A DNA stretch of 64,000 nucleotides. Origin: Candidatus Heimdallarchaeum aukensis (GTDB taxonomy: Archaea > Asgardarchaeota > Heimdallarchaeia > Heimdallarchaeales > Heimdallarchaeaceae). This document shows positions 41,395 through 58,440 of the stretch, piece after piece. The notes beneath the pieces are model-generated. The model was not told the origin of the DNA, did not search any database, and saw only the letters and a list, made by a program, of their open reading frames with translations. Every line of letters starts with the position of its first letter. Within the stretch, counting starts at the first letter, position 1. The DNA lies in NCBI GenBank assembly GCA_021513695.1, contig CP084166.1, positions 2,624,001-2,688,000 of the forward strand. The letters run 5' to 3'. Made by a program: the position numbers and the translations under genes.

Positions 41395-42801
41395 TTAGAT
41401 AAAATCTCCCGTTTCTATTTTCTGTGGGAGGTAGAAGTTTGTAATAAATTGTGGGTCACGTGCATTTAATGCTTGTATTTCTGCTTTATAACCTGTATTT
41501 ATTAGGATTTCAAGTTGTTCTTGCCATTTTGGTTTTCTCTTTACGAACTCTTCTTCAAGCATTAACTTTGATCTTCTTATGTCTTTTTGAGTCATTTTGA
41601 TTAGTGCTTCTCTAGGAATATCAAATCCACTTTCAGGTTTTAGATCACTTGGGAGCAAACCTAACCATTTAATATTTGGCACTGCAAGATGGGTTGATTC
41701 GAAACTAAGAGCTTTACTTCCAACGCTATATACTCTCATGATTTCGAATCCGTAAGGGTCAGCATCCATAATGGCAAGAATAGGTAATTGTAAGTCATCA
41801 TTTATTTTCTTTAGAAACTGTCTTGTTGCCATGTCAGGTTGACCTTTAGCTGTAACTAAAATGCTTGGTACATAATCGTAAAAATGGTCTTCTGCTAACC
41901 TGTTAAAAATAGCATCTTTTTCAATAACTAAACAAAATTCAGCATCACTTTCTAAATCTTCGATGTCATCTATATTTGGTGAAATAGCTTTTCCTGAACC
42001 GATAGCTCTACAATCTATAAGATCACCCTTTTCCTTGAATTGTAACTTTCCTACAACAATACCTTTAGACGATGCACTAACATTTAGTGAAGTCCTCGTA
42101 GCTTGTATCATTGCTCCTAAATCTTCAATAAGAGAGTCTGATACTGCTTGTTTCTTAAACGCATTCACATTCATGTAGAAAATATCTCTTTTTGTACTGT
42201 GAATATCACGTGATAGTATGTCATGAAGAAGTCTCATTAATATTGACATTTGTTCAATCGTGCTTACAGAGGATAAACTCCTAAATTGGCGTTCTATCAT
42301 TTGTCTACCAATAAGTACTAATTCTTGTTCTTCATCAAAACCAATATTTCTCTTTCCTCTTGAAGGAATTTTAAAACTAGCTTCATCAGGTTTGTTAAGT
42401 GCTTCATTCAAAAATAATAATGCTGCTTCAACAATTTTATTTTTAGCTTTTTCCGAAGACATTGTTTCTACATTAGTTACACCATAAGGTAACTCATAAT
42501 CCTGCAATAAAGTAAGTTCGTTTCTAAGTTTCCTTATTTTATCAACTGGAACTTTTCTTTTTATTTCAATTCTCATTAATTCTTTCTTAAGAGGATAATT
42601 ACCTAAGGTTTTACCTTTCTCTAGAGGATACCACTTCTTTCCGCTTCTCAAAAAGAGTACAAAAGATCCTTTTTTAAGTTCAAATTCTTCTTGTAATATT
42701 TGAAATAATTCATTTATCTGAATACTGTTATCAAAACTCATTTTTACTTCAGTTGAAGGCAATATTGTTGCATTTTTTACTAAAAAATTATAGTTTACCA
42801 T
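41395..42801 (-). CDS. top6A: DNA topoisomerase VI subunit A (Spo11/Top6A family)
   Basis: Winged-helix region with the RDIFY tyrosine, and the Toprim domain CLVIEKDAIF...ILVTAKGQPDMATRQFL...LPILAIMDADPYGFEIM. Starts 9 nt after the top6B stop with a GGTGG SD. Confidence 0.85.
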   Translation of the reverse strand: MVNYNFLVKNATILPSTEVKMSFDNSIQINELFQILQEEFELKKGSFVLFLRSGKKWYPLEKGKTLGNYPLKKELMRIEIKRKVPVDKIRKLRNELTLLQDYELPYGVTNVETMSSEKAKNKIVEAALLFLNEALNKPDEASFKIPSRGKRNIGFDEEQELVLIGRQMIERQFRSLSSVSTIEQMSILMRLLHDILSRDIHSTKRDIFYMNVNAFKKQAVSDSLIEDLGAMIQATRTSLNVSASSKGIVVGKLQFKEKGDLIDCRAIGSGKAISPNIDDIEDLESDAEFCLVIEKDAIFNRLAEDHFYDYVPSILVTAKGQPDMATRQFLKKINDDLQLPILAIMDADPYGFEIMRVYSVGSKALSFESTHLAVPNIKWLGLLPSDLKPESGFDIPREALIKMTQKDIRRSKLMLEEEFVKRKPKWQEQLEILINTGYKAEIQALNARDPQFITNFYLPQKIETGDFI

Positions 42802-42810
42802 TTTTCCACC

Positions 42811-45800
42811 TCATTTTGTACTCCTTTTTTTGGTTTCAATTTTTGTATCAGCTGAAATTTCATCTAAAGTTGTTTGTTTTGTTCGCTTTGAAGTTGTTGT
42901 TTTCTTTGTTGTTGTACTTGGTCTCTTTGTTTTAGTAGTCGTTGTTTTCTTTGTTGTTGTACTTGGTCTCTTTGTTTTAGTAGTCGTTGTTTTCTTTGTT
43001 GTTGTACTTGGTCTCTTTGCTTTGGTAGTCGTTGTTTTTACAAAAGGAATTGTCTGTTTGATCTTCTTTATATCATTATAAGTCATCTCTAGCTTTCCTT
43101 CAAGCTGAGATGTCGGATAAGCAATAAATTCTCCAATTGTATTAATTCCAAGTGAGTTCAACTTATTTCGTATTTGCTGTTTAACATCTAATTTTTCTAT
43201 TGGCTCTTCTATTAACTTTAGTAATTTTTGAACATTTTTGTTTTTGAAAATATCTTTTCTCTTCGTACGATTATCAGCAAATATCAACTCTTCAAACGAA
43301 GATATCCCTATTTCTTTTAATTTTGATATAATCTCACTGCTCATAAATGGTGTACTTTTCACTATTTGCGTTTTACCCTTCTTTGCAATTTTTAGAGATT
43401 GAGGAGTTAAAGTTGCAAAATAGTTTCTTAACTGCCTTTCTGTTATATTAGTAATTTCAGTCAGTTCGTTAATTTTTGTATTAAAAACATCCCAGAGAGA
43501 ATACTTCTGTTTATGGTATAATTTAAAGATACTGTTTGGTTTATCCTGCATTAGTGCATAGAATGAGTAAATTGGGTATGAAAGAAGTTCTTTTAATGTG
43601 GATATCTGTCTGATTGATAACTCTGTTTGTTCTTTAATTCTCTTATCAGAAACTGATAAATGTATAATGTGGGAATACCCACCGTTTTCCAATATGGATT
43701 TTTCAGTATCTGAAAATAGACCTAAATCTTTAATCCTATAGCTATTTAGTTCTAATTGCTCTTTCACTTTAGTCATGTTAAGAGAGTTAAGAAGTTCAGT
43801 AAATTCTGCACGTTGTTTTTCTGTAAATTTAATCTGTAAATCATCTATATTTTGTAGGAAGAAAAGATCATAAACTTGTTCATAACCTCTTTTTGCTAGT
43901 TGAAAAAGTATATTCTTTTGACGTATAAATAATGCTAATGATGCTCTAAAACAAGAAAGAACATCTTTTACTTTCATGGATAAGTCGCTGATATTTTTCT
44001 CTTCAAACAAAGCAATTAGTTCACCTAATGAATTTATATCATTTTCATTTAGCTCGTTAATTATTTCTTTATCGTTTACAAAATCTATAAGTTTAGAATT
44101 GCTTTGAGATGCTAATGAATCTAGATCATGGAACGGAATTTGAGATAAAAGGTTTTTAAGGACAGTTATGTTTGAAGATTTATTTAATAATAGTAAATCA
44201 TAAACTGTTTTTGTATTACTTTTTAGTAGAAGCCTAAATGTTTCCTTACTCTCAAAGACAAGTGGAAGAGAGTAAATTTTTTGTTCAATTCTTAAACGGA
44301 GTTTTTCCGTGATCTTCCATCTCTTTGAAGTTTTTGATTTTGATACAATATTAAACACGTAAGCCTCTTCTATAGAGAAAATGTGACCTTGACTTAAAAC
44401 ATCTAATTCAGTTTTATCCAAAATTGTTTCAGGAATGGGGGTTAACTTAGATGCTAGAGTACGTAATGTTTCTAGTGATAGATTTCGAATCTGACGTATT
44501 AGTCTATTATCGTCGATTATCTGACTTAACTGGTATCTAGGTTTTAAAATTAAATCTCCTATTGTTAAGTTGCCATATTGTTTGAATTTCTCTTTATTTT
44601 CAAAACTTTCATTGACTAGCAAAATAACATGCCTATTTAGAAATTGTAAGTATTCATTAAAGTGTAAAGTTATGGTCTCTGGGAAAGAACTTGTAATTTT
44701 GTCAAATTGCTTTTTATCATATTTCTCCAAGAGAAGTAAGGATTCAAGGGTATATTGGACTTTTAGTTCATCTTTTTCAGGAAGATTCAACTTTTCTTCG
44801 AATTTGGTTGGTTTTGAGAAAATAAATGAGTAAATATCAAGTAGTCTCTTGGATACTTGAGAATTTACTTTTAGAGAATCATGATGTATATTGAAGAAAA
44901 CTAATTGTTGAAAACTTAAGTCTGGGAGTTTTTCGTCAAAATATCGCGAAGAGAGTTTTTGTAAAAGTCCAATTTTTGTTCTTAATGAAGGTGAAAGGTT
45001 AGAAACAACATCAGTGTTTTCAAAGAGATCAAGATAATTCTTAATACCATTTTCTCTCAATTCAGCAATATCAAAATCTTGTAGAACAATGTTTGTTTTT
45101 AGAGCAGGGGGGTTGCTTATTCTAGAAATAGTAATCTTACTAAGAAAAGTGTCAACTTCACTAATGTTTGTGCTTATAATTTTTGCAAGAGCTGGCTTAG
45201 ATAACAAAAGCATTTCTTGTAGAGTACTTACTTTGGATAAAAGTTTTAACCAATTTTCGAGAGGAAGTTGTGGGAAAGAAATCAGATAAATAGATTTGTT
45301 TAATATCTTTTGAACATTATTTCGTAATTTACTTCTCAATTTACAGTGTTTTTTTGATAAATCATAAACCAAATCGTCAATAACTGTATAATATTTCAGT
45401 AATTTTTTCTTTGTTTCACTATCAAACAGCATAATATTGGAAAGTTGAACTCTTTTATCTCTCAATTTTTTAATTGTTTTAACATTCAAAGTTGAGAGAA
45501 CATGATTAACTTTCTCAAGTTGTTTTTCTGATAAGAATGAAGAATATGAAATAGGTTTAATTAGTAAATCCTTTAGTGTTTCGATTTTATGTTCATTCAG
45601 TTTTTCTACTTCTTTTTCAGTGAAATCTGTTATTATAGAGACAGAACTGTTAAGGAGGTTTAGAATCTCTAATCCTGTTTTAGTAAGAAACTCTTTGTTC
45701 ATGTATAAAACAGAAATAAAATCAATGATATTTGAGATCTCTGGAATTTCAATGTTTTTGCTGAATAAGTTTTTTGAATTAATAGTACCAAGAAAATCTT

Positions 45801-48800
45801 TTGTCTTTAACGTAAGAGATAATGTTTTCTTTTTATCTTTAATCAGATTACTAATTATGGTGTTATAATCACCAAAGCTGACTAGTTGATCGTTTTTAAC
45901 AAGATCTCTGATGGTGAAAAGATTGTTGTCAAAGTATTTTGTTTCAATCTCTTCAAATTTTAAGGAGTTAATAGAGCTTAAGAATAGGATTGATGTATCT
46001 AAAATTTGTTTTATTTTTGTTCTTATTTTTTCTATCTTTTTAATATCATAAAGCCAGTTGTATATTGAATTCTCTTCTAAATCTGAAAAACTATAGAATC
46101 CATAAGATAACAAAGTAGATTTTTCTTTTTCACTAAGAAATGGTAAATCTACAAAATGATTTGGCTTATCTTTTTCAATTGTTTTCTTGATTTTATCAAT
46201 CTTTATTGATGAGCGTAGTTTCAATATTTGATCAAGTTTAATCCTTGATTCTTTTGCGACTGTTTTATACGGAATAAGCAGTAGATCTGCGATAGTGTAT
46301 GTTCCACCTTTTTTAAGGTTAGTTTCTATTTTCTCTTCTAGTCCTAAATATCGAATATTGGCTAGTAAATATGGGCTAATTTCTGCAAATATGCTCTTAT
46401 CTTTTAGATTAACATCTCCAAGTAATTCTTGATAAGATAAGTACCCAAGTTTCATTGCTTTTTCTTCATATGAACCTAAAGGAGGAATAAAACTTTCAAG
46501 ATGTAGATTTTTTAACATTGATAGACTTGATAAAATTTCATCAACCATTGCATCATCTAGATTTTGGATAGAGGAAATAACATCTATAATGTAAACTAAC
46601 TTCTTGTTATAACAAGATTTTATTGTATCTAATGTCAATATAGGTAGATTGTTTATGTTTCTACTTAATTTCATTCTAATATCTTTAATTTCTTCAATGT
46701 ATGAATCTGGTAGGCTTAAGAAAAACTCTTCAGGGAAGTAATATAGATATTCAATTGAGAAAACTCCCAAACTGTATAGCTTTTGAACTAATGACTTATT
46801 TAACTTTAAGTTTGCAATATCAAGAGTAGAGAATTGAAGGGAAGATAGATTCCTAATGAAAAGAGAATTGTTCTCTTTTATGGCTTTATCCAATTTTGGG
46901 AGAAGGGTTTCCCACAGGTGAATAGGAATATGAAGGTAGTCATAATATGTTTTTTTATTTTTTAAAGATTCATTAATATTTTTTGTTGAAATCCCGAGTA
47001 TACGCTCAATTGTCTTTATTGGTGTAAAGAGAATAGGTATATTCACTATCAACTTTTCTTTTTCATCTTTGTTTATTTCTAATTGATCTACATCATGATA
47101 AAATAGTTGAATTAAAGAGTAAATCTCATTTTCATTAAGATATTCGATTGTAGAAACCTCGGGTTTTTTGATTGTTTTTGGACTAGTACCTTCTTTAGCT
47201 TCACGTTTTTTAATAAGTGGAAGTTTACCCTCTTTTGTTAGTTCTTTTTCAGTTAAGGATGGTAAAAGGTTTAAGTCGATTCCATAGAGTTTAAGTTCAG
47301 AAACAATATTTCTTTTACTAATCTGTAATTTAATAGTGTTTATCTCTTTATACTCTATTTCAAATAATTTACCCAAAGAAACTGATGGAATAGATAAAAA
47401 TTCAAGTATAGTGTTAATCTTATTTTCAAAGAGAATAGAGTTTTGTTGCAATGAAAGTGAACTTAAGAAGGAAATTGGAGTTGTTCCAAACAATGAGAGA
47501 GTCTTTTTTATTGATGATAAATTCTTATCTTCTGAACTGTAATCCTGTAAACAAAGAAGTTGATCTAAATACTCAATATTAATCTTTTTTAGATATAGCT
47601 TCTGTTGTTTGGACAAAAATTTTACATCACGTAACTTAATTGCCCATTTAGGTATTTGAAAATCAGATAAAGAACTTACTACATATTCTGCTAGTTCTAT
47701 GTCAATATTGTCTGGAGGAAGAAGTAATAAATCAAGAATAAGTTTTTTATCTTCCTTCATCAAATTTCTCAAAAACTCAAGCTGATCTATTTGAGAAAAT
47801 TTATCTAACCAAATAATTGGATATTTTACCATACTTGTAAGAGAATTAGAATTACTAAAGAGAATTTGAGAACTTATGACAAATGGTTGAGGAAGCAGAT
47901 CTAGTAGATTAATAACATCGGGAGAGGTCTTAATGTCTAGTTTATCACTTTTATTTGATAGAATGTCCAGATGATCTTTGGGAATTAAGTTAACTAATTT
48001 TTCTTTAGAAAATTCTTTTACAAAACGGATAATCTCACTTCTAGCATTTGATGGAATAGTTCTCTTTTCTTCAGAGCTAAGAGTAAGAAGTTCAATAATA
48101 TTTTTAACTCCATTTTTCCATAAATCAAGTTTGACGTCTAAACTCATGTCTGAGATAGAAAAAATATTTAGACATAAACCATAGATTAGTTCTTCAAGTT
48201 TAGCAATACTACTCGCTTTTTCTATTTTTTCACTTTCTGAGAATATAAGCAAGTATTCTGGTACCAACCCAAAGATATCTTCAAATGATGCTTTTGAAAG
48301 GTTGAATTTAAAGTCTGTGAGTGTACTTATTAATTCTTTATCTTCTTCAAGAATAGGTATGCCTGAACTAAGGCTTATGTTTCCCTTTCTTTTATCTTTT
48401 AACTCTTCAGGAATGGAATTGAATATCTTCTTAAGATCTTTTTCTCTAACTATAAAGAGGTCAATAACTCGTAGAATGCGGTTTTTTGCAAGACTACGTT
48501 TAATAAAGCGTGAAAGGTTTGAAATTCTGAAGACTGAAGAGTTACAAAGAGAGAGAAAATTATCAATATTTTCCTTAAATTCTTCAGAAAATGATTTTAT
48601 TTGATAACAAAGACCATAAAGATCTTGAACTGTGTCCTTATTCAGTTTTTGTAAGCTAAGAAGATTTCTCTTTGACAATAACGCAAGAGATTCAAGTTTT
48701 ATTCCTTTTTCTTCAACTTCATTTAGTATTTTTTTAACTGAAATATTTTCTTTTATTTTGATAATTTCAGTTTCAGGTATGTCTAAAATTAATGATATCG

Positions 48801-51800
48801 TAGTGATGTCTTCTGTTAAGAAGGTGAGTATATCCCCGACGCCAGAATAAACAAGTTTTAACATTTGTTCTAACTCTAAATCCAAGAAGAATACAGATGA
48901 GAGATACAACTTTGCTTCTTTAAATACATTCATGTTCACTAGATATGGGTATGATTTTCTGATTTCAGACATTCTAGAAATGAAGTCTTGAATTGAATAA
49001 ATCCCTAATTCATGTAATTTTTCTACATATTCACTTGTTATTGATGGACAATTTTCTAGAGGAATTGCAAAACGAAGTCTTTTCTCTTTTAATTCATCTA
49101 AAGATAACAAGTCAAATATATGAAATTCATCATAAATAGGATTGTTTAGAATTTGTGATAATTGTCCTTTTTCAAAAAGAGACAAATCGATTACTGAGTG
49201 AATATCCTGTAATTCTAGTTTCTTTATTTCTTCAAAAGACAAGAAACTAAGAAAAGTTATTGAACCTGATAATATTTCTTTAAATTCTCTATATTTCTCT
49301 TGCTTTAAGATACTGGATGCACCCATTCTTACTCCAGCATAGTACAAAGTTTCTATGTCTGATATTCCTATATCTCGTAATTTAGAAATTTCAGTTTCCG
49401 TGATGAGAGAAGAAGGCATAATAGGGTGAGATCTTGCTTTGTGTAATTCAACAATTTCACTATAAGATAGATTTTCCTTTATTTCATTAATCCTTTTTTG
49501 TGTTTCATTAGATATTTCAGAAAGTTTTTTGGTTGGTGTTGAATAAAAGTCTATTAATGTTGTAATTGAAGATCTGCTAAGAGGAAGAGCAAGATTAACG
49601 TCCAAGTTTAGTGAAGAAATAGGAATAGACAAATCACCTATAAGTTTATCTAAACTATTTTCTTCACCTAGTTTGTTTTTAATTTCCAAGAGAGGAGAGT
49701 TCTCCTCGAATTCAAGTTCAAATAAGCTCCCTAAAGTAATTATAAAGTATTTATTCCTCATATCTTCACTTAAAAGATTGAGAAAAGGTGTAATTCCAAG
49801 TGGTAATTCAAAAACTGAACGAATAAGTGTAATGTTACATTTTTCAAAAGCTAATTGTCTTTCAAATTCGCTGAGGGTTTTTATCAAATCTGTGCTGGAA
49901 ATAACATCAAGTAATGTTAACTCTTCAATATCTTCCAGAATAGTAGAAAAGAAGTCTTTATTGTAAGCAGTTGCAGAAAGAAAATCAAAGTAGTGATAAG
50001 CTCTCAAGTCAATTAATTTAGAAGAATAGTCTGAAACAGTTCTAAATAGCGTTCTATCCGTTAAATCGCTATCTAATATGAATATTAAATGGTAAAGGTG
50101 GGTTATTTGGTTTTGATTAAAAATAGTCAAAGAATAATCTGAAATCTCCTGAAAAATCCGTAAAGGAAGTGATAATATTTTCTTTAATGTGAAAACTTTT
50201 CTCCAGATTGATGAGTTTCTGTCGATGAAAACTTCATCGGGACAGTAGAAAAGTTCTTGAATTGATTGAAATCCTTCATAACTGTAAATTGTTTCTCTAC
50301 TTAGCGTTCTTTGTTCATTTTTGTCAAAAAGTCTAGTTTCATATGCATAGATTGCTCGCGCCTCATATTCTTCTCTTATTCTCTGTGATGTTAAAATGTC
50401 AATTATTTCCTTTGTTTCTTTTGTTGTAATGTTTAGGATATTACTGAGTTTAACAGATGAAGTAGAAACGAAATCAACTATAGTTAATATACCCGCTTTT
50501 CTCAATTCTTCAGTTTGTGAAAAAGAGATATTTGGTAAGAAATAAACAGGGAGACTGAAAAAGTAAAAAATTTCACCAAGATCTAGACTTCTCTTAATAT
50601 TATCAAAACGTTCGTCGGGAATCCCTGTTCTTTCCATTAGAACTTTAGATGACGTAAGTAGAAAACCTAACAATGTATTTATTTTGTTTTTCTTTAAGAG
50701 CTTAATTATATCTGGATCTAACATGTCTGACAAGTGCTTAAATCGTAAATTTAGCACATTTTTTAAATTCTGAACTATCTCCCATGGAATTGTTCTTATT
50801 GCCCATTTTTCTTGCTGAGTAGAAAAGTATAGGTCCTCAATGGTAAAGATGTTGTTAGTTTCTAAAATTTCTACTATCGATGGTCTAAAGATATCAAGTT
50901 CAGAAATATCTGTTCCAGTTTCACTAATCCTGATATTTTTCTTGTATTTTTTAGCTTCTTCTAAATCAATTTTTAAAATAGAAGCGATTGTTTCATCACT
51001 AACAAGGAAAAAGTCAATGATTCTTCTGATTCCAGTTTTTCTTAGAGCATTCAGCTGTTCATGGGATAAGCTTGTTATTTCAATTTCTTCAATTTCTTCC
51101 TCTTGTTTTGTTTCTTCATTTAATATCTTCTTCTTTGTGGTTTTTTCCCAAGTAACTAGCGTCAGGGGAGAACGCAATAGTTTCTTGAATTTTTCAATTA
51201 CACCCCATTTTATTATGGGAGCACCAAAAGTGTAAGGGTGTGTTAAATAAAATAGCTGGTCTATAGAATTGTAACCAATAACAAGTAAAGAACGGATTTC
51301 TTCAGGTGAAAAACGTTCTGAATTTTCAAAATCAAAGGAGATTATTGATTCATACTTACCACTAGATACTTTCTCGTAGAATGGTTGTCCATCTCTATTT
51401 ACATCAAAATTGTTTATTAACTCATCAAAATTCTTCTTTGAAAAATTAAGTATCGTGCTTAATTCATCAAAACTGTAATTTAAAAATTGGTGCAGAGAGT
51501 AAATCTTTTTTGAAGCTAATACTTCATAATCTTTAAGTTTCAAGCTTTTTATACGAGTGATTGGTAATTGCAAAAACTGATAGAAATCAATTATTTCGTG
51601 AGATAACAAAACTTTTTCTGCAAACTCATCAGTATCTTTAAGATTTTTACTATTTATATTGTCGTAGAGTTCAAGTAAAATTTTTTTGTCTTTATTTTTT
51701 GAAATTTCTGTCTCAATAAATACAGGTGTAAGTTGAAGGAAATCTCTTATTGTATTTACATCCTTGGTTTTGAGCTTAAGAAGAGCATCATTCAATGACT

Positions 51801-54800
51801 TTGCTTTAGATTTTGTTGGGGCTAACTTTGCTAAAAATATTAGATCTTCATTCATGAATTCTCTAAAGTTATTCATCTTAGTTAAAAGATCTGAAATCGA
51901 CGGAAGTTCTTCTTCAATATAAAAGTAAAACAACTCTTGTATTGTTGTTTGTTGTTCATTGAATTGCTTAACCAATCTTGGAAAGTGTTTTTTTATTATT
52001 TTTAAATTTCCTTTGTATCTTTCTTTATTTTTTGTAATCTTGTTAGCAGATATACTTTGTTTTAGACGTATAATTTCTTGTTCGTTAAGGTTTAATACCA
52101 AAGAGAGTTCTTTATTACTCCATATTAGAAACCTGCCTATACAGTTTACTCCAATTTCATTCAAAACGTTAATTTTCTCGTTTAGTTCAGGAAAAGCAAA
52201 AATCAAGGGAGTTCGTAATAGTAAGTAATCTGAAACATATTGTTTCTTTGTTTGTTCATCTTTAAATTCAAAATTCTCTGGTTGAGAATATAGAATGTCC
52301 TCTACTGTATAAATTTCATATTTACTTGCTTTGTTCTTCAAAGATAGAAAGTTAGGAATGGGCGTACCTATCTTTTTCTTTATTCTTGCAATCTCGCTTT
52401 TTAATAAACCCATTTCGCGTAATTTTTTCGATGGTGTAATCAAGAATGATGTGGAAGTAAATATCTTGTTTTCTAGCAATTTTTCTTCAGCTTTTTCACT
52501 AATCACTTTTAAGTGTGATAGGTCAAGGTCTTTATTTACTTCATTAAGATGAGAAAGAATGCGAAACTTTGATTCTTCTAATAGACTATCAACAAAAACA
52601 CTTAGTTCTTTTTTCATTAACGTTCTTAATTTAGCGTTTGCATATTGTGCTAAGGTTTCTATATTCGCTGATTTAAGACTGTCTAGTATGTTTTTTCTTA
52701 TATTGTCATCTATGGTTGATATTAGTCCTAGTTTGTTAAGAGGGATAGATCTCTCGCTGTTAGCTAGAATAGTGAAAAATCTAGTATAAATAGAACGCTC
52801 TAATTCTTTGATTTCTAAAAGGTCTTTAGTTGGCGTTTTAAGAAAATTATCTATTGTCTCTATCTTTCTTCTATGAAAAGCATTTTTAGAATATCCATCT
52901 ATCCAATCAGGTTTCATTTTTGTAATGTTGACCTTTAGAAAATCAGGAAACTTTTCTGAAACATGTGAAAATACCTTTTTAACGTAATCAATCAACATTT
53001 CTGTTAAATCATTATCATATTTAAACGAAAAAGGCTCATTGAACTTATAAATAAAATCCTCTAACCCCTTAAACTTATTTGAAAAGTTGGGATAACTTGT
53101 TTTTATATAATTGAAATCTGGATACAGAAATTCTTCTTTTAACTCTGAATAATCAGACATAGTTTCTAAATTAAATTTAAATTCTTCGATAAAGATCGAC
53201 AACTCTACTGTTTCTTGGCCATCTTGAGATTTTGTAACTTCGTTAATTAGCTTAAATTTGTTATCTTCTATTAGACGTTCTACTAAACCTTCAACTAAAC
53301 GCAATTGTGTAGCTTCTGTAGCTAAATAATGATAGCTATTTTGAATCCATCTTTGATATAATGCTTCATTGAAACTACTACTAGTTCCTTGACGTGCAAA
53401 CCTCTTATCTATCATTTTATTTGTTAATGCTTTTAGTGGGAGTTCAGGGCTCAACTTAGACCTGTCTAGTTCATAAATTGTTCTTTGTTTTATTCTTGAA
53501 ACTTCTTTTTTTGAAAGATTCAAAATAGGAGCTAGTTCTGAAACAGGTATGGAAAGAAACTTTCCAATTGTTAAAATATCACTTTTAGCACAACTTTTCT
53601 TGTATTTATCAGGGCACCACACATTAAGTTCAAAAATGGGTGTCCCTAAAGGAACAAAATTTCTAATTTTCTTTTTTGCTCCGTGAGCTAGAGCTGCTGC
53701 AACTTTATATTTTTCTTTATTTATGTTTGTATAAACTATTTTTTCATTCTCTAAAATTCTTGCGAGGTTATCAATTACAACAGGTGCTGATCGTACAAAA
53801 CGGGATAATCGTGCATGTTCTCTTTTCCTTCTTTTTGCTCTACTAAGGAATGTTTTAAGTCTTCTACCAAGTTGTTGTAAAGCTAACCTAATCTCTTCTT
53901 CAATTTCTGGGACGGTTGAGATATACTCCTTACTCGTTTCAGGAAAAGGTATTTTTGTACTTACAATTGATACTGCAATCGCGAGAGGATCTGATTGTCT
54001 TGTAAGACCGTATTCACTCCAATTAAGCGAAGAAACTACTTTTGTAATAACGTCATTTCCCGCACCAAAAATTAAAGGAATTCTATTTGCATATCGATAA
54101 ATTATTTTGTTGTCGACTGACGTGCTTCCTTTTTGTTGAGCATATTTTGATACTCCCCCCCCATAACCTATTGCTGCTTCAACGATAAAAGGATGACCAG
54201 AATAAGCTTTTGGAGGACGAGAAATCGCTTCTACAAACTCTGGTTCAAGTTCTTTTTCTAAACCTTTTCTTAATCTTGCTGCTCCTAAAGGAGAAAGAGC
54301 ATCACCTTGTGGAGCATCAAATCTAAAGATTCTATCTCTTTTTCTTTTTATTTCTTTAGCCTCTTGGTAGGCTTTGATAAATCCTTCATGAACTATTCTT
54401 CTAATTTCTTTAGAAGTAAGGTCGCTAGGCTTTTTATTAGGGTCAATTTCTAAAATCTGAAAGAACTCTTCAGCTACTTCTTTTCTTACTCCCATAAAAT
54501 CTTTTGACAGAAAATCAACTAGATTTTCTGCAGAAGTAGCAGCAATTTTTGCTTTAAACTGAGTGATATCACATCCAAATGGGTGTAACTGAATTACTTT
54601 AGGAGGGTCGGGCATATCATCTACTACTTTTTGGAAAACTAATGTTTCACTTGTTCCTTCTTCATCTCCTGGAAGAACTACAGTAAAACTTGCATAGGGA
54701 GTAATTATAGCTAATTGTTTAAAATACTCCTTAATACTGTTCTTTGCTAGATTCCAAGCTCCAGTAAAAGTTATACTTATCTCAGTACCGCTAGTGTGCA

Positions 54801-55365
54801 AATATCCTGGGTCATCTGGATTATATTCGTGTTGTTCCATAATAACAGGTTCATTTTTTTCCAAGTTGATCATTAAATGAACTTCTGTAGTCATTTCTTC
54901 CATGAAGTATCTGCTCTTTATCCTTGCAGGAAGATCTACAGATGACATAGAATGTAGTAGACACATCTTGGCTCCTAAACCAAATCTGCCTCTAGTTTGA
55001 ATTACTCCATATTTTGTTCCTGTTAATACTCTACCAAAAAGATTTGGAATCTCATGACCAGGAACACCTACACCGTTATCTCTACATGTTAACTGAAGAA
55101 AATCAAGATGTTTTTCTAACTGTTTATATCTGGTAATATCTAATAATTCATTAATTTCAGAACTTGATAACTTCCTTAATTCAATATATATTTCAGGGTT
55201 CACACCTAGTTTTTCTGCTGCATCTAAGCCATTCTCGACCAATTCTCTAACAGAGGTAAAAACAGCTCGCATCGAGTTGCCAAAACCTGCAATGGCCTTA
55301 TTTTCATTGAAGAAAGCAGCTGCACTCATTTTTCGTGTTTTATTTTCTTCAGCCACAAAATTCAC
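42811..55365 (-). CDS. top6B: Giant (4184 aa) DNA topoisomerase VI subunit B fusion. The N-terminal ~540 aa carry the Top6B GHKL ATPase and transducer. They are followed by ~3,500 aa of tandem HhH-like repeats and a Lys/Thr-rich basic tail.
   Basis: Bergerat-fold motifs ELVENGLDA (N box), RDNGVGVP (G1) and GRFGLGAKM (G2), then a transducer-like region ending in a long basic helix. The rest is one uninterrupted ORF. A 12.5-kb stop-free frame in AT-rich DNA cannot arise by chance. SD GGAG 7 nt upstream of the ATG. Confidence 0.8.
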   Translation of the reverse strand: MNFVAEENKTRKMSAAAFFNENKAIAGFGNSMRAVFTSVRELVENGLDAAEKLGVNPEIYIELRKLSSSEINELLDITRYKQLEKHLDFLQLTCRDNGVGVPGHEIPNLFGRVLTGTKYGVIQTRGRFGLGAKMCLLHSMSSVDLPARIKSRYFMEEMTTEVHLMINLEKNEPVIMEQHEYNPDDPGYLHTSGTEISITFTGAWNLAKNSIKEYFKQLAIITPYASFTVVLPGDEEGTSETLVFQKVVDDMPDPPKVIQLHPFGCDITQFKAKIAATSAENLVDFLSKDFMGVRKEVAEEFFQILEIDPNKKPSDLTSKEIRRIVHEGFIKAYQEAKEIKRKRDRIFRFDAPQGDALSPLGAARLRKGLEKELEPEFVEAISRPPKAYSGHPFIVEAAIGYGGGVSKYAQQKGSTSVDNKIIYRYANRIPLIFGAGNDVITKVVSSLNWSEYGLTRQSDPLAIAVSIVSTKIPFPETSKEYISTVPEIEEEIRLALQQLGRRLKTFLSRAKRRKREHARLSRFVRSAPVVIDNLARILENEKIVYTNINKEKYKVAAALAHGAKKKIRNFVPLGTPIFELNVWCPDKYKKSCAKSDILTIGKFLSIPVSELAPILNLSKKEVSRIKQRTIYELDRSKLSPELPLKALTNKMIDKRFARQGTSSSFNEALYQRWIQNSYHYLATEATQLRLVEGLVERLIEDNKFKLINEVTKSQDGQETVELSIFIEEFKFNLETMSDYSELKEEFLYPDFNYIKTSYPNFSNKFKGLEDFIYKFNEPFSFKYDNDLTEMLIDYVKKVFSHVSEKFPDFLKVNITKMKPDWIDGYSKNAFHRRKIETIDNFLKTPTKDLLEIKELERSIYTRFFTILANSERSIPLNKLGLISTIDDNIRKNILDSLKSANIETLAQYANAKLRTLMKKELSVFVDSLLEESKFRILSHLNEVNKDLDLSHLKVISEKAEEKLLENKIFTSTSFLITPSKKLREMGLLKSEIARIKKKIGTPIPNFLSLKNKASKYEIYTVEDILYSQPENFEFKDEQTKKQYVSDYLLLRTPLIFAFPELNEKINVLNEIGVNCIGRFLIWSNKELSLVLNLNEQEIIRLKQSISANKITKNKERYKGNLKIIKKHFPRLVKQFNEQQTTIQELFYFYIEEELPSISDLLTKMNNFREFMNEDLIFLAKLAPTKSKAKSLNDALLKLKTKDVNTIRDFLQLTPVFIETEISKNKDKKILLELYDNINSKNLKDTDEFAEKVLLSHEIIDFYQFLQLPITRIKSLKLKDYEVLASKKIYSLHQFLNYSFDELSTILNFSKKNFDELINNFDVNRDGQPFYEKVSSGKYESIISFDFENSERFSPEEIRSLLVIGYNSIDQLFYLTHPYTFGAPIIKWGVIEKFKKLLRSPLTLVTWEKTTKKKILNEETKQEEEIEEIEITSLSHEQLNALRKTGIRRIIDFFLVSDETIASILKIDLEEAKKYKKNIRISETGTDISELDIFRPSIVEILETNNIFTIEDLYFSTQQEKWAIRTIPWEIVQNLKNVLNLRFKHLSDMLDPDIIKLLKKNKINTLLGFLLTSSKVLMERTGIPDERFDNIKRSLDLGEIFYFFSLPVYFLPNISFSQTEELRKAGILTIVDFVSTSSVKLSNILNITTKETKEIIDILTSQRIREEYEARAIYAYETRLFDKNEQRTLSRETIYSYEGFQSIQELFYCPDEVFIDRNSSIWRKVFTLKKILSLPLRIFQEISDYSLTIFNQNQITHLYHLIFILDSDLTDRTLFRTVSDYSSKLIDLRAYHYFDFLSATAYNKDFFSTILEDIEELTLLDVISSTDLIKTLSEFERQLAFEKCNITLIRSVFELPLGITPFLNLLSEDMRNKYFIITLGSLFELEFEENSPLLEIKNKLGEENSLDKLIGDLSIPISSLNLDVNLALPLSRSSITTLIDFYSTPTKKLSEISNETQKRINEIKENLSYSEIVELHKARSHPIMPSSLITETEISKLRDIGISDIETLYYAGVRMGASSILKQEKYREFKEILSGSITFLSFLSFEEIKKLELQDIHSVIDLSLFEKGQLSQILNNPIYDEFHIFDLLSLDELKEKRLRFAIPLENCPSITSEYVEKLHELGIYSIQDFISRMSEIRKSYPYLVNMNVFKEAKLYLSSVFFLDLELEQMLKLVYSGVGDILTFLTEDITTISLILDIPETEIIKIKENISVKKILNEVEEKGIKLESLALLSKRNLLSLQKLNKDTVQDLYGLCYQIKSFSEEFKENIDNFLSLCNSSVFRISNLSRFIKRSLAKNRILRVIDLFIVREKDLKKIFNSIPEELKDKRKGNISLSSGIPILEEDKELISTLTDFKFNLSKASFEDIFGLVPEYLLIFSESEKIEKASSIAKLEELIYGLCLNIFSISDMSLDVKLDLWKNGVKNIIELLTLSSEEKRTIPSNARSEIIRFVKEFSKEKLVNLIPKDHLDILSNKSDKLDIKTSPDVINLLDLLPQPFVISSQILFSNSNSLTSMVKYPIIWLDKFSQIDQLEFLRNLMKEDKKLILDLLLLPPDNIDIELAEYVVSSLSDFQIPKWAIKLRDVKFLSKQQKLYLKKINIEYLDQLLCLQDYSSEDKNLSSIKKTLSLFGTTPISFLSSLSLQQNSILFENKINTILEFLSIPSVSLGKLFEIEYKEINTIKLQISKRNIVSELKLYGIDLNLLPSLTEKELTKEGKLPLIKKREAKEGTSPKTIKKPEVSTIEYLNENEIYSLIQLFYHDVDQLEINKDEKEKLIVNIPILFTPIKTIERILGISTKNINESLKNKKTYYDYLHIPIHLWETLLPKLDKAIKENNSLFIRNLSSLQFSTLDIANLKLNKSLVQKLYSLGVFSIEYLYYFPEEFFLSLPDSYIEEIKDIRMKLSRNINNLPILTLDTIKSCYNKKLVYIIDVISSIQNLDDAMVDEILSSLSMLKNLHLESFIPPLGSYEEKAMKLGYLSYQELLGDVNLKDKSIFAEISPYLLANIRYLGLEEKIETNLKKGGTYTIADLLLIPYKTVAKESRIKLDQILKLRSSIKIDKIKKTIEKDKPNHFVDLPFLSEKEKSTLLSYGFYSFSDLEENSIYNWLYDIKKIEKIRTKIKQILDTSILFLSSINSLKFEEIETKYFDNNLFTIRDLVKNDQLVSFGDYNTIISNLIKDKKKTLSLTLKTKDFLGTINSKNLFSKNIEIPEISNIIDFISVLYMNKEFLTKTGLEILNLLNSSVSIITDFTEKEVEKLNEHKIETLKDLLIKPISYSSFLSEKQLEKVNHVLSTLNVKTIKKLRDKRVQLSNIMLFDSETKKKLLKYYTVIDDLVYDLSKKHCKLRSKLRNNVQKILNKSIYLISFPQLPLENWLKLLSKVSTLQEMLLLSKPALAKIISTNISEVDTFLSKITISRISNPPALKTNIVLQDFDIAELRENGIKNYLDLFENTDVVSNLSPSLRTKIGLLQKLSSRYFDEKLPDLSFQQLVFFNIHHDSLKVNSQVSKRLLDIYSFIFSKPTKFEEKLNLPEKDELKVQYTLESLLLLEKYDKKQFDKITSSFPETITLHFNEYLQFLNRHVILLVNESFENKEKFKQYGNLTIGDLILKPRYQLSQIIDDNRLIRQIRNLSLETLRTLASKLTPIPETILDKTELDVLSQGHIFSIEEAYVFNIVSKSKTSKRWKITEKLRLRIEQKIYSLPLVFESKETFRLLLKSNTKTVYDLLLLNKSSNITVLKNLLSQIPFHDLDSLASQSNSKLIDFVNDKEIINELNENDINSLGELIALFEEKNISDLSMKVKDVLSCFRASLALFIRQKNILFQLAKRGYEQVYDLFFLQNIDDLQIKFTEKQRAEFTELLNSLNMTKVKEQLELNSYRIKDLGLFSDTEKSILENGGYSHIIHLSVSDKRIKEQTELSIRQISTLKELLSYPIYSFYALMQDKPNSIFKLYHKQKYSLWDVFNTKINELTEITNITERQLRNYFATLTPQSLKIAKKGKTQIVKSTPFMSSEIISKLKEIGISSFEELIFADNRTKRKDIFKNKNVQKLLKLIEEPIEKLDVKQQIRNKLNSLGINTIGEFIAYPTSQLEGKLEMTYNDIKKIKQTIPFVKTTTTKAKRPSTTTKKTTTTKTKRPSTTTKKTTTTKTKRPSTTTKKTTTSKRTKQTTLDEISADTKIETKKRSTK
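42904..43038 (-). repeat. Three tandem copies of a 45-bp direct repeat at the 3' end of the giant top6B gene, encoding (KRPSTTTKKTTTTKT)x3
   Basis: The unit ctttgttgttgtacttggtctctttgttttagtagtcgttgtttt recurs at 42904, 42949 and 42994, the last copy with 2 mismatches. It reads in frame on the minus strand as KRPSTTTKKTTTTKT. Confidence 0.85.
43040..53580 (-). other. Region of the giant top6B gene encoding a tandem array of degenerate (HhH)2-type repeats (RpoA-alphaCTD/NusA/HhH_5-like). At least a dozen strong copies and many weaker ones.
   Basis: Recurring ~55-65-aa unit L..xGIxTIxDL...S..eL..ILNI[ST]xKE..EIK..L. Examples: LRKTGIRRIIDFFLVSDETIASILKIDLEEAKKY, LRKAGILTIVDFVSTSSVKLSNILNITTKETKEI, LNEIGVNCIGRFLIWSNKELSLVLNLNEQEIIRLKQ, LNSLGINTIGEFIAYPTSQLEGKLEMTYNDIKKIKQ, LHELGIYSIQDF, LRDIGISDIETL. 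Confidence 0.5.
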
Positions 55366-55503
55366 TCCTTATATTCCGAATTAATGTACAAACATACATT
55401 CTTTTTCTATTATTTAAAGATAAATTAACCGTTTTAATAATTTAGCGCTTTAGGATTGAAATACAAAAAGTGAAATAATAAAATAAAAAATAGAGAAAAT
55501 AGA

Positions 55504-58440
55504 TTATTTTTTCTTGCGGAACAATTGTTGTTTTACTGGTTCTGGATTAATTGTTAGAGAAGAAACAATTATACCAAGTGTTAGAATAAATAATGCTGCA
55601 AAAGCCCCTCCAGTTCTGTAAGAGTCAGCTCTTCCGATTATTGAGAGGAACTCATCTTCTATTTGTTTAGCAAGGTTATCTGTGGAATATAGGATATCTT
55701 CGAGCCAGAATAAGTTTGCCATGTCTGCAGTAAGTTTTGGATAAGTTTGATGCCATGTTCTGTATTTATATTGAATGTCTTCAGTATCTTCTACAACATC
55801 TTCATCAAGGAATGGATAGTACTCAATATATTGTCCTGCATAAGTGTTGTATTGTACTCTATCTCTTCGTTCAAGAATTGTACCAGTTGTTGGGTCAGTG
55901 AAGATCTGTTGGAAGTGGAATTCATCACGTATAGAACCTGGGAAGGTGTGAGTGATATAAATATCGTCATTCTTCCAATCGGTACCATGAATTTGGTTCC
56001 ATCTTCCTACATGGACGAAACTCTCGTTTAGGTAGTCTGCATACTCTTGCCAGTATAAATCGTATTGATCGACTTGTAGGTAAGGTTGTTGTGTATCTGC
56101 ATAATAAATGTAAGCATCTCTACCATACATGATTGTTTTATCTCTGGCTGAATCAAATATAAATGGACGATAGAAGTACTCAACCCATCTTTGTGTAAAT
56201 CCTCTTTCTGTGTTTGGAGGTAGGACATCTAATCCATAAGTTTCACTAAATGGTTCAAACTGTGTAGTCTTCATTGGCCAATTGTTTAATTGAACAAAAG
56301 AAGCTTTATCCCAAATTTCAACGAATGTTCTTAATTCGTCTCTATGTAAGACATCACTGAATGAACCTGAAGAATAGGTTATGTGTATTAATCCTTTTGA
56401 ACCATCTGCAAGGTAAATGTTTTCACCAGAAGCATAAATATCGTATGCTTCTCCGTCACTATCATAAGTTGCTAAACTTGTTAAGGAATTGACGTTAGAT
56501 GCATCAACTACAATCAAACCATTTTCTCCAGCAGTGAGATATAGCAGATCGTTGTTTTGGTATAGGTTGAAGAATCCACCAGAAACACCAAAGTCATATG
56601 TTCCTATTTGAGTTAAGGTGTTTCCACTAATGGAATAAACAACAAGTCCTAAGGTGTCATCAAGAACATACAGAGTTGTTCCATCTAATAATAACTGAGT
56701 TGCTCCAGTAAGAGAAACGTTTGCTAATGATTCTAATGTAACTGCATCAAAAACTTCTATTCCTCGTCCCTGTTCAACAGCATAGGCTTTTGTTCCATCA
56801 GTTACAACAGCTGTAACAGGAGATTCAGTCTCTTTAAGTGTGTTTAGTGATATGTCTCCTCCATTAGTAGTTGCTTTAGCTAATCCATATTGACCCATAG
56901 CGATGAGCATAAAAGTCTTTGTTGGATTATATTCAAGGTCTAAAGCGTTTATATCTCCTCCATTGGTCCAAACTGTAATTTGGTCAATTTCTGTAAGATC
57001 AGACATATCTAATGAAACTATTCCTTTTTCTCCTGCTGCTACGTATGCAAAATCGCCATATAAACTAGTTTCAAAAGCGATGTCTCTGAAGAAATAACCT
57101 TGTAATCTGTATCCACCAATACCCAAAAACAAGGGGCTGGATGTGTTTACTATTCTAAATCCTCTATTTCCTTCAATAACATAAGCGAATTCGTCATTCA
57201 TTTCAACCTTATAACTTTGAGATTCTTCGAAGGTTGGTATGTTGGCTATTCCAATGATTTCATCAACTTTTGTTATATTATCTCTTCCTGTTTTAACAGC
57301 GTATAATAGGTCTGTTGAAGGATCAACTGAGTCAACTGCAAATGACTGATTAACTAAGAAAGGATATTTTTTTCCGCCGAGGAGTGGATCTTCAACTCCT
57401 GTAACCCATTCTAAAGCTGTTCTTTCACATATGTATGATATCTTGTTTTCATATAACCAGTTTAAAGCAGGTGTACCAGTAAGATATCTGATGTATGCAG
57501 CAAAAGATTGAGCTTGTTCTAGTTCCTCTGGTGTATCGATGTCATAAATTTCTGCTAACTTTTGAGTTACATTAATTGTGAGGATTGAGGGGTCATAGCT
57601 TAACCCTTGGACTAAATCAAGGAAGTACTTCATAGAACCGGCTTCTCCAGTGAATAGAGAATAATCATGACCATCTGCAGTAATTGCATTAAAGAGAATT
57701 TTGTAGGCTGTAGCGCTATCAAAGTTAATATCAGTGTGGTCAGGACGTGAGTTGATCCACATGTGAGGGCTATATTTGATACTATAAATTAGGTCGTTAG
57801 TTTGAGCATATGCCTTATTTAGCACAAGTTTAGCAATCTCACTGTTGTTGTATCCTAAACCTTCTAACTCGCTTCGAATCATAAATCCTGCAACATAAGC
57901 TTGTAAACCATATTCTGAACCATTACCAAAATTTTTCACATAATATGGCCAGAGGTAGTTATAATTGATGATTTTCTCATTACCTGTTAATGTTGAAAGT
58001 GTTTTATTTAAAGTGTATTGTTTCCGTTCGGTGTAAACAACATAATCATTTTCTTCACTATAATCAATTACAAATTTCTTCACTTCTAAGTCAAATACTA
58101 GTTTTCCTGGAATACCTATGTAAGTAATTGGAGTGTTCTTGTACAAGTATGCGTTTCTATCACTTATGTTGTAAAATTCTATATACGTATGAGCGTAATA
58201 ATTACTATCATCAGAGTATTTAGCAACATACATCCAATCAGAGTAATTGTCGCTTCCTCCTTCATAAGGATCAAGATCGTCTTCTGTAATCATACCATAC
58301 TCATTTAGCTTCTCTTCTATTTGATTATTGATTTTAATAGTTTGAATTGGTAACATTACGCCAACTGCGATAGCTGATCCAGAAGTTAAAATTAAAATAA
58401 ATATTCCTAACATTACACGGAATTTTTTCTGCATAGTCAT
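55504..58440 (-). CDS. LVIVD-repeat (beta-propeller) surface protein with an N-terminal signal/TM and a C-terminal TM anchor
   Basis: Repeated GLIVVDASN, GLVVYSISG, GIEVFDAVT, GFRIVNTSS and GIVSLDMSD motifs of the LVIVD repeat. Hydrophobic N-terminus (MLGIFILILTSGSAIAVGV), C-terminal GGAFAALFILTLGIIVSSLTI followed by basic residues. Many NxS/T sequons. Confidence 0.6.
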   Translation of the reverse strand: MTMQKKFRVMLGIFILILTSGSAIAVGVMLPIQTIKINNQIEEKLNEYGMITEDDLDPYEGGSDNYSDWMYVAKYSDDSNYYAHTYIEFYNISDRNAYLYKNTPITYIGIPGKLVFDLEVKKFVIDYSEENDYVVYTERKQYTLNKTLSTLTGNEKIINYNYLWPYYVKNFGNGSEYGLQAYVAGFMIRSELEGLGYNNSEIAKLVLNKAYAQTNDLIYSIKYSPHMWINSRPDHTDINFDSATAYKILFNAITADGHDYSLFTGEAGSMKYFLDLVQGLSYDPSILTINVTQKLAEIYDIDTPEELEQAQSFAAYIRYLTGTPALNWLYENKISYICERTALEWVTGVEDPLLGGKKYPFLVNQSFAVDSVDPSTDLLYAVKTGRDNITKVDEIIGIANIPTFEESQSYKVEMNDEFAYVIEGNRGFRIVNTSSPLFLGIGGYRLQGYFFRDIAFETSLYGDFAYVAAGEKGIVSLDMSDLTEIDQITVWTNGGDINALDLEYNPTKTFMLIAMGQYGLAKATTNGGDISLNTLKETESPVTAVVTDGTKAYAVEQGRGIEVFDAVTLESLANVSLTGATQLLLDGTTLYVLDDTLGLVVYSISGNTLTQIGTYDFGVSGGFFNLYQNNDLLYLTAGENGLIVVDASNVNSLTSLATYDSDGEAYDIYASGENIYLADGSKGLIHITYSSGSFSDVLHRDELRTFVEIWDKASFVQLNNWPMKTTQFEPFSETYGLDVLPPNTERGFTQRWVEYFYRPFIFDSARDKTIMYGRDAYIYYADTQQPYLQVDQYDLYWQEYADYLNESFVHVGRWNQIHGTDWKNDDIYITHTFPGSIRDEFHFQQIFTDPTTGTILERRDRVQYNTYAGQYIEYYPFLDEDVVEDTEDIQYKYRTWHQTYPKLTADMANLFWLEDILYSTDNLAKQIEDEFLSIIGRADSYRTGGAFAALFILTLGIIVSSLTINPEPVKQQLFRKKK

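Follow-up and report, generated by a model that had tools for sequence, protein, structure and literature searches.

A giant Top6B with a tandem helix-hairpin-helix array in the topoisomerase VI operon of Candidatus Heimdallarchaeum aukensis

The locus analysed here is a topoisomerase VI (Topo VI) operon within a 64,000-nucleotide stretch of the Candidatus Heimdallarchaeum aukensis genome (the window; contig CP084166.1, positions 2,624,001 to 2,688,000 of the forward strand). Its B subunit, Top6B, consists of a complete catalytic module followed in the same polypeptide by a long array of helix-hairpin-helix (HhH) units and a basic tail. An earlier reading of the letters and open reading frames (ORFs) alone, below called the sequence-only reading, had described the gene as a Top6B fused to a very large non-topoisomerase extension. 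Coordinates are those of the window. Residues are numbered from the first codon (GTG 55365) of the 4184-codon ORF; the deposited protein begins 3 codons later.

The top6B-top6A operon

The operon was read on the minus strand and comprises the following features.

55365-55370, minus strand: AAGGAG, Shine-Dalgarno-like motif, 8 nt upstream of GTG 55356 and overlapped by the called GTG 55365
42811-55365, minus strand: top6B open frame, 4184 codons from the first GTG; stop codon TGA at 42811-42813
42802-42810, minus strand: spacer between top6B and top6A, 9 nt, carrying GGTGG directly before the top6A ATG
41395-42801, minus strand: top6A, 468 aa; catalytic core aa 111-468

The locus is a genuine top6B-top6A operon of Ca. 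Heimdallarchaeum aukensis and has the B-then-A order that had been proposed, with top6A 9 nt downstream of top6B. The coding-strand composition (A 0.39, T 0.31, G 0.15, C 0.15) gives a stop probability of 0.083 per codon, or one expected per 12 codons. A stop-free run of 4184 codons would arise by chance with a probability of ~1e-158, in line with the earlier argument that the 42811-55365 frame is not accidental. GC content is 0.28-0.30 along the whole gene.

The frame had been called correctly, but its start probably had not. GTG 55356, 9 nt downstream of the called codon, is the probable start because AAGGAG sits 8 nt upstream of it and the resulting N-terminus, MAEENKTRKMSAAAFF, agrees with the orthologue consensus MSxxxxTKKMSAAAFF. 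Translation from this codon gives a product of 4,181 aa (~485 kDa) with 100% identity (4181/4181) to GenBank UJG40514.1 / UniProt A0A9Y1FL76, annotated as 'DNA topoisomerase VI subunit B' of Ca. Heimdallarchaeum aukensis on a 3.08-Mb contig. The position of GGTGG, right after the top6B stop and before the top6A ATG, suggests that translation of the two genes is coupled.

Topoisomerase modules

53716-55347, minus strand: complete Top6B catalytic module (GHKL ATPase, H2TH, transducer), aa 7-550
53812-54312, minus strand: transducer domain, aa 352-518 (Pfam PF09239, Topo-VIb_trans, E 3.5e-57)
53650-53865, minus strand: junction, aa 501-572; terminal transducer helix, then a ~35-aa linker

The Top6B motifs quoted in the sequence-only reading are present. 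The NCBIfam Top6B equivalog NF003218 was matched over aa 7-550 with 470.8 bits and TIGR01052 with 400.6 bits, both above their cut-offs. Alignment to S. shibatae Top6B (2zbk_B, 1mx0_A) retained the N-box VRELVENGLDA, G1 box DNGVGVP and G2 box QTRGRFGLGAK, with N-box residues aligned to E38/N42 and the switch Lys of ETSKEY aligned to K427. The 2zbk_B alignment was continuous across aa 8-539. The terminal transducer helix is strongly basic (net +17 across aa 501-600) and the linker that follows it was modelled by AlphaFold2 with low predicted confidence. The WKxY motif of the transducer reads WSEY (aa 444-447, window about 54025-54036, minus strand; orthologue consensus WNEY); its lysine, part of a listed conserved Top6B feature, is lost in the giant-Top6B family.

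Top6A was matched by Pfam TP6A_N and TOP6A-Spo11_Toprim and by NCBIfam profiles. Alignment to 2zbk_A and 1d3y_A retained the catalytic Tyr in RDIFY, the Toprim Glu in VIEKDA, and DADPYG. As the catalytic motifs are kept in the alignments to 2zbk, 1mx0 and 1d3y, both subunits look catalytically competent.

The first ~110 residues of Top6A (aa 1-110, window 42472-42801, minus strand) form an N-terminal extension absent from S. shibatae and M. mazei Top6A, and the lone profile hint obtained for it was a sub-threshold match to FERM_f0 (ubiquitin-like; E 0.01). Top6A is 469-470 aa at Hodarchaeales-type loci (L001, L003) and at a locus of the 3,501-aa Top6B type (L010). For Asgard TopoVIA only an extra N-terminal helix has been described (Brinkmeier et al., PMC9665070).

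The helix-hairpin-helix array

43033-53649, minus strand: tandem five-helix (HhH)2 units of the alphaCTD/RAD51-N type, ~62 aa each, aa 573-4111

As estimated in the sequence-only reading, ~87% of the giant Top6B, (4184-550)/4184, lies beyond the Top6B module. The label 'non-topoisomerase' stands for this extension and its nature can now be specified as a tandem (HhH)2 array, of the type found in the RNA polymerase alpha C-terminal domain (alphaCTD) and the RAD51 N-terminal domain, plus the basic tail. The consensus of the array unit is LELPISFLPGLSPEEIKKLKKNGITTIEDFLFTPDEELAEILGLSEEEIEEIKKSLDLPEI.

Self-BLASTP of the extension gave no internal match at E <= 1e-3. The repeats are too divergent for pairwise detection and profile iteration was therefore needed. 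Pfam returned only scattered RAD51D_N, RNA_pol_A_CTD, TfoX_C and IMS_HHH matches, those to RAD51D_N and RNA_pol_A_CTD exceeding the gathering thresholds. An iterated hidden Markov model (HMM) seeded with these matches located 22-25 units at i-E <= 0.01 and 0 in shuffled sequences. A 61-position unit HMM returned 49 envelopes, 39 of them at i-E <= 0.01, against a mean of 3.9 envelopes (0.23 significant) in 30 shuffles. The longest uncovered stretch within the array was at most 138 aa. Unit-to-unit spacing peaked at 55-70 aa, which leaves room for ~55 unit equivalents. The array was accordingly estimated from these profiles at roughly 45 (HhH)2 units (39 significant, up to ~55 by spacing).

The unit profile aligned over its whole length, across 58 positions, with the alphaCTD structure 1doq (E 1.4e-4) and further matched the N-terminal domains of RadA, RAD51 and RAD51D and the HhH modules of Pol IV and Brr2. 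In a fragment of one distant giant-Top6B relative, HHH_5 totalled 81.7 bits. AlphaFold2 models of two 700-aa segments were all-alpha. The first (aa 500-1200) had a predicted local distance difference test score (pLDDT) of 65; the second (aa 2780-3480), a region mostly without any Pfam match, had a pLDDT of 77, rising to about 85-92 over aa 2960-3470, and a predicted template modelling score (pTM) of 0.60. Foldseek of both models against the PDB gave no match at E <= 0.001. Single array units superposed on the N-terminal domains of RAD51C, RAD51 and RadA at 1.7-3 A, and the top whole-model match for aa 500-1200, itself non-significant, was a Topo V-DNA structure.

When 1.84 billion representatives were searched exhaustively with aa 1301-2200 (phmmer), only 35 relatives were returned, and those that could be identified were giant Top6Bs or HhH-only fragments of them. 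From these matches the array appears essentially private to the giant-Top6B family. Two candidates for standalone HhH-array genes (P0205, P0212) were rejected, both being fragments that span whole contigs. A 545-aa protein of the UbiA prenyltransferase family (P0215) gave a weak match (E 1.4e-6) to extension residues 1870-2130, which may reflect a fused or miscalled C-terminal region.

The basic C-terminal tail

42814-43032, minus strand: basic low-complexity tail, aa 4112-4184, 73 aa, 78% S/T/P/K
42892-43038, minus strand: 45-nt tandem repeat coding the tail unit, 3.3 copies, 97% matches
42853-42876, minus strand: conserved tail island QTTLDEIS, with invariant Q/T/L/D columns; Heimdallarchaeaceae consensus KQTTL[LFM]D

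The tail carries a net charge of +22 (aa 4101-4184) and holds three copies of the 15-aa unit TTTK[AT]KRPSTTTKKT. A 98% identical protein (P0001) has at least 5 copies in its last 100 residues; the repeat number therefore varies between close strains.

The conserved C-terminal peptide was compared in P0002-P0013, P0035-P0062 and P0075. Identification of QTTLDEIS as a PCNA-interacting peptide (PIP) box was not supported for the window protein: the island is PIP-like, but the aromatic pair is absent. The strict pattern Qxx[LIM]xx[FYW][FYW] was found in 4 of 68 complete relatives, for example as RQKSLNAF in Hodarchaeales-type proteins. The 2,311-aa Hodarchaeales type ends in ..GRLD[SA]YM, other Hodarchaeales-type proteins carry RQKSLNAF or KQKSLDEY (canonical PIP-like), and Kariarchaeaceae-type tails have no conserved C-terminal peptide. 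The peptide may serve to dock a partner such as PCNA. The tail of one partial relative (P0032, 4,099 aa) contains repeated SAP-motif sequences (PF02037), SAP being a DNA- or chromatin-binding module common in eukaryotes.

Integrity and conservation of the fused gene

A whole-protein search returned 76 clusters, all of them Top6B proteins of 2,311-4,341 aa or fragments truncated by contig ends. Twelve full-length orthologues (4,161-4,341 aa, 41-48% identity) aligned almost gap-free along the 3,600-aa extension, and several relatives come from independent projects with contigs of 0.37-2.85 Mb. GTDB species representatives were scanned for the junction with narrow patterns, and 4 loci were returned. 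In the closed chromosome of Ca. H. endolithica PR6 (CP084167.1), 86.9% identical to the window DNA at the top6B locus, the frame likewise runs without a stop for at least 4,053 codons, as far as the examined locus extends. Both Heimdallarchaeum genomes were circularised with Nanopore and Illumina reads and share 88% average nucleotide identity (PMC8813620). Nei-Gojobori dN/dS between the two species came to 0.016 in the Top6B module; the extension had 0.087 (0.047-0.172 per 500-codon block). The fusion is maintained under purifying selection throughout Heimdallarchaeia.

An assembly chimera or annotation artefact, in which a normal top6B has been wrongly joined to an unrelated repeat gene, was considered. 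Repeats and AT-rich DNA are generally prone to misassembly, and nothing specific was found in favour of such an error here. Two closed genomes and numerous independent assemblies, from different studies and sequencing platforms, share the identical architecture, purifying selection acts along the whole frame, and the units, as the empty self-BLAST at E <= 1e-3 indicates, are too divergent to recombine. We regard an artefact as extremely improbable. The chimeric join that the sequence-only reading had wished to see checked is effectively excluded by the closed Ca. H. endolithica genome together with the orthologues.

The transducer-array junction is homologous in all three size classes of the family, and this homology argues for a single ancestral fusion. 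The proposal of one giant encoded polypeptide in the sequence-only reading is borne out by the open frame in Ca. H. endolithica, the dN/dS of the extension, the gap-free orthologues and the homologous junction.

A search with the Top6B module alone returned proteins of 611-622 aa as the nearest matches other than obvious fragments of giants. In each case HhH-repeat ORFs follow directly, and then top6A; the ORFs are 611, 617 and 1,033 aa at one locus (L001) and 622 and 2,996 aa at the other (L002). These loci were examined as candidates for a normal-length Top6B beside a separate repeat gene (P0081, P0083), close to the situation which, according to the sequence-only reading, would have counted against the fusion. 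The candidates were rejected. By tblastn both loci follow giant orthologues collinearly through changes of frame (three frames in L001, two in L002), which marks them as frameshifted copies of the fused gene. The frameshift sites lie at 3150-3230 and 5040-5090 in L001 and at about 6750-6850 in L002, the first of each just past the Top6B module. The next nearest Top6Bs (Korarchaeota, Njordarchaeia, Bathyarchaeia, plants) have 35-41% identity and ordinary lengths.

The same two metagenome-assembled loci bear on the possibility that the product is a precursor, or effectively two proteins, with Top6B and the HhH array acting as separate polypeptides, either after proteolytic processing or because the lineage tolerates separate genes. 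Breaks just past the Top6B module, and the ~35-aa low-confidence linker at the junction, speak for such an arrangement, and the breaks may represent natural gene fission or programmed frameshifting. Since they are frameshifts within collinear homologous sequence and L001 holds a second one, sequencing errors or decay are the probable cause. The two loci were also chosen for the length of their Top6B, an ascertainment bias. Pfam scans of the protein found no intein, protease or cleavage-site domain, the fusion is kept in 76 family members, and the shorter HhH-only matches are whole-contig fragments. Separate polypeptides are accordingly considered very unlikely, and a single fused protein is the reading carried forward.

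Distribution and gene context

The sequence-only reading had looked to Lokiarchaeia; the lineage concerned is Heimdallarchaeia. Size classes were assigned by source names and protein sizes. A few matches carry the NCBI labels Thorarchaeota, Odinarchaeota or Promethearchaeota, given here as deposited.

Heimdallarchaeaceae: giant Top6B of 4,160-4,340 aa
Further size group: about 3,870-3,920 aa
Kariarchaeaceae type: 3,470-3,690 aa
Hodarchaeales: 2,311-2,330, 2,410-2,460 or 2,940-2,980 aa

Gene order differs within the family. At a Hodarchaeales-type locus (L003, 5491-18360; GCA_011364965.1, RDOB01000002.1) the operon reads gyrB-gyrA-top6B-top6A, with a 2,314-aa Top6B. The 4-nt overlap of top6B with gyrA at this locus implies that gyrase and the giant Topo VI are expressed together. 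In the window and at the locus of the 3,501-aa relative, top6B and top6A form a pair with no gyrase nearby. A 3,866-aa top6B (L011, 6001-17601; ENA ERZ25073868, 2.85-Mb contig) has no top6A beside it and is followed by a gene in the opposite orientation, so not every member of the family keeps the B-then-A order. According to Villain et al. (2022; PMC9348778), gyrase occurs in the Heimdall, Kari and Hod lineages. The same study found that C-terminal elaborations of Top6B correlate with the presence of gyrase, and described only domains of ~100 aa.

Directly upstream of top6B in the window lies a gene for a 978-aa LVIVD-repeat protein (55504-58440, minus strand), syntenic in Ca. H. endolithica (976 aa). 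Elsewhere in the window an ORF at 4538-8752 (plus strand) encodes a 1,404-aa FtsX/MacB-like protein, and the ORFs at 8765-11563 (minus strand, 932 aa) and 18845-20404 (minus strand, 519 aa) gave no Pfam match.

Comparison with known systems

The giant enzyme is a bona fide Topo VI whose architecture is so far paralleled only by that of Topo V, by convergence. With canonical archaeal Topo VI (S. shibatae, 2zbk; M. mazei, 2q2e) the giant shares the joint encoding of both subunits, and its GHKL-H2TH-transducer module and Top6A 5Y-CAP/Toprim core can be aligned along their full length. Canonical Top6B usually has ~470-620 aa and a C-terminus of one or two helices or, in M. mazei, an Ig-like C-terminal domain of ~100 aa, whereas the giant adds ~3,630 residues. 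The giant also differs in reading WSEY for WKxY and in the ~110 additional N-terminal residues of its Top6A.

Topo V of Methanopyrus kandleri (type IC) likewise has a topoisomerase core followed by an (HhH)2 array, of 12 domains, in one polypeptide. The core of the giant is Top6B/Top6A, type IIB and not type IC, and the likeness is one of architecture rather than family membership. The related domains RNA_pol_A_CTD, RAD51D_N, HHH_XRCC3_RpoA and HHH_5 occur once per protein, whereas the giant Top6B appears to concatenate ~45. In the Top6Bs of gyrase-encoding archaea the C-terminus is likewise the variable end and its elaborations track gyrase; these are globular domains of ~100 aa, and nothing of the size or fold of the giant array is mentioned there (PMC9348778).

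Proposed function of the array

Topo VI binds DNA weakly, works distributively and has a compact B subunit. By analogy with Topo V, we lean towards the array being a sequence-independent DNA-binding or DNA-wrapping scaffold. In this proposal the two arrays of an A2B2 enzyme would exit the transducer C-termini beside the Top6A DNA gate and would serve as a sequence-independent double-stranded DNA track or wrapping scaffold, like the 12 (HhH)2 domains of Topo V. They would keep the normally weakly binding enzyme on DNA, where it could hold hundreds of bp on either side of the gate segment or, for decatenation, seize a second duplex. Electrostatic contacts of the basic tail with DNA or with partners would add to this binding. 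The roles suggested in the sequence-only reading, such as processivity, bridging and scaffolding, are likewise proposals. As these lineages also carry gyrase, unlinking, and not supercoil homeostasis, is probably the task in which their Topo VI has specialised.

The (HhH)2 domains of Topo V, which contact DNA phosphates directly at few points as they wrap the duplex, serve as its processivity factor and make other enzymes processive when fused to them (PMC9489208). Support for a DNA scaffold was further counted from the non-significant top Foldseek match to Topo V-DNA, the SAP motifs in the tail of one relative, the Hodarchaeales gyrB-gyrA-top6B-top6A operon and the correlation of Top6B elaboration with gyrase (PMC9348778).

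Several observations weigh against a DNA scaffold. The extension is near neutral, with a net charge of +24 over 3,634 aa. The hairpin glycines are poorly kept (the first in 45% of units, the second in ~10%). The DNA-contact residues of the alphaCTD '265 determinant' are not conserved, the R265 equivalent being basic in 18% of units and the N268 equivalent Asn in 17%; the most conserved basic unit position is column 53 (K in 63%). Gap-free, position-specific conservation and a pTM of 0.60 would fit a rigid protein scaffold equally well. The array might then act mainly as an interaction platform and not as a DNA binder, its units recruiting gyrase, chromatin proteins, replisome or segregation factors, or self-associating, with Topo VI held in a large assembly. 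The neutral charge and the loss of alphaCTD contact residues would both be expected of such a platform. Unit positions are fixed, with almost no indels across orthologues at 41-48% identity, the pTM over 700 aa points to confident packing between predicted units, and the short conserved C-terminal motifs resemble partner-binding peptides. Against it, the closest relatives of the units (alphaCTD, RAD51/RadA N-terminal domains, Pol IV thumb, HHH_5) come from DNA-binding proteins, the array is fused to a DNA enzyme beside its DNA gate, and Topo V shows that (HhH)2 tracks with almost no contacts can bind DNA. A mainly protein-binding role is rated as unlikely, though a serious alternative, and the DNA scaffold is preferred.

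A bolder version of the DNA scaffold, which we consider improbable, would have the two ~3,500-residue (HhH)2 solenoids turn Topo VI into a megadalton chromosome-organising machine that combines decatenation with the part of a structural axis or loop anchor. Hundreds of bp would be wrapped or bridged by it, and the conserved C-terminal peptide would perhaps dock replisome or chromatin partners. Heimdall-group archaea are usually placed closest to eukaryotes. If true, this lineage would possess a prokaryotic equivalent of the scaffold function that Topo II serves in eukaryotes.

Novelty and significance

No description of a giant Top6B or of a Top6B-HhH fusion was found in the full-text literature searched, most subscription journals being outside its reach. 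The texts without a giant Top6B include PMC12680538, PMC9348778, PMC11302465, PMC9665070, PMC12395588 and a 2025 bioRxiv Panguiarchaeum preprint, and this negative result spans the genome paper, two Topo VI phylogeny papers and one Asgard replisome paper. The genome paper (PMC8813620) highlights other proteins of ~5,000 aa and never mentions a topoisomerase. The earlier claim of an undescribed Top6B holds for the architecture only; the gene itself is public and automatically annotated as Top6B.

To our knowledge the giant Top6B would be the largest topoisomerase subunit. We know of only one earlier case, Topo V, of a topoisomerase with a long (HhH)2 array, and the two are of independent origin with unrelated catalytic cores. 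HhH arrays are used in biotechnology to make polymerases salt-tolerant and processive. As such arrays already serve polymerase engineering, a new natural source of them is of practical interest.

A whole archaeal class keeps a B subunit enlarged seven- to eightfold over the usual size, in what would be an A2B2 enzyme of ~1.1 MDa, and a fold known for handling DNA makes up the added mass. The family offers a testable handle on processivity and crossing capture in type IIB enzymes, on the division of labour between gyrase and Topo VI, and on the upkeep of very long, non-interchangeable repeat arrays.

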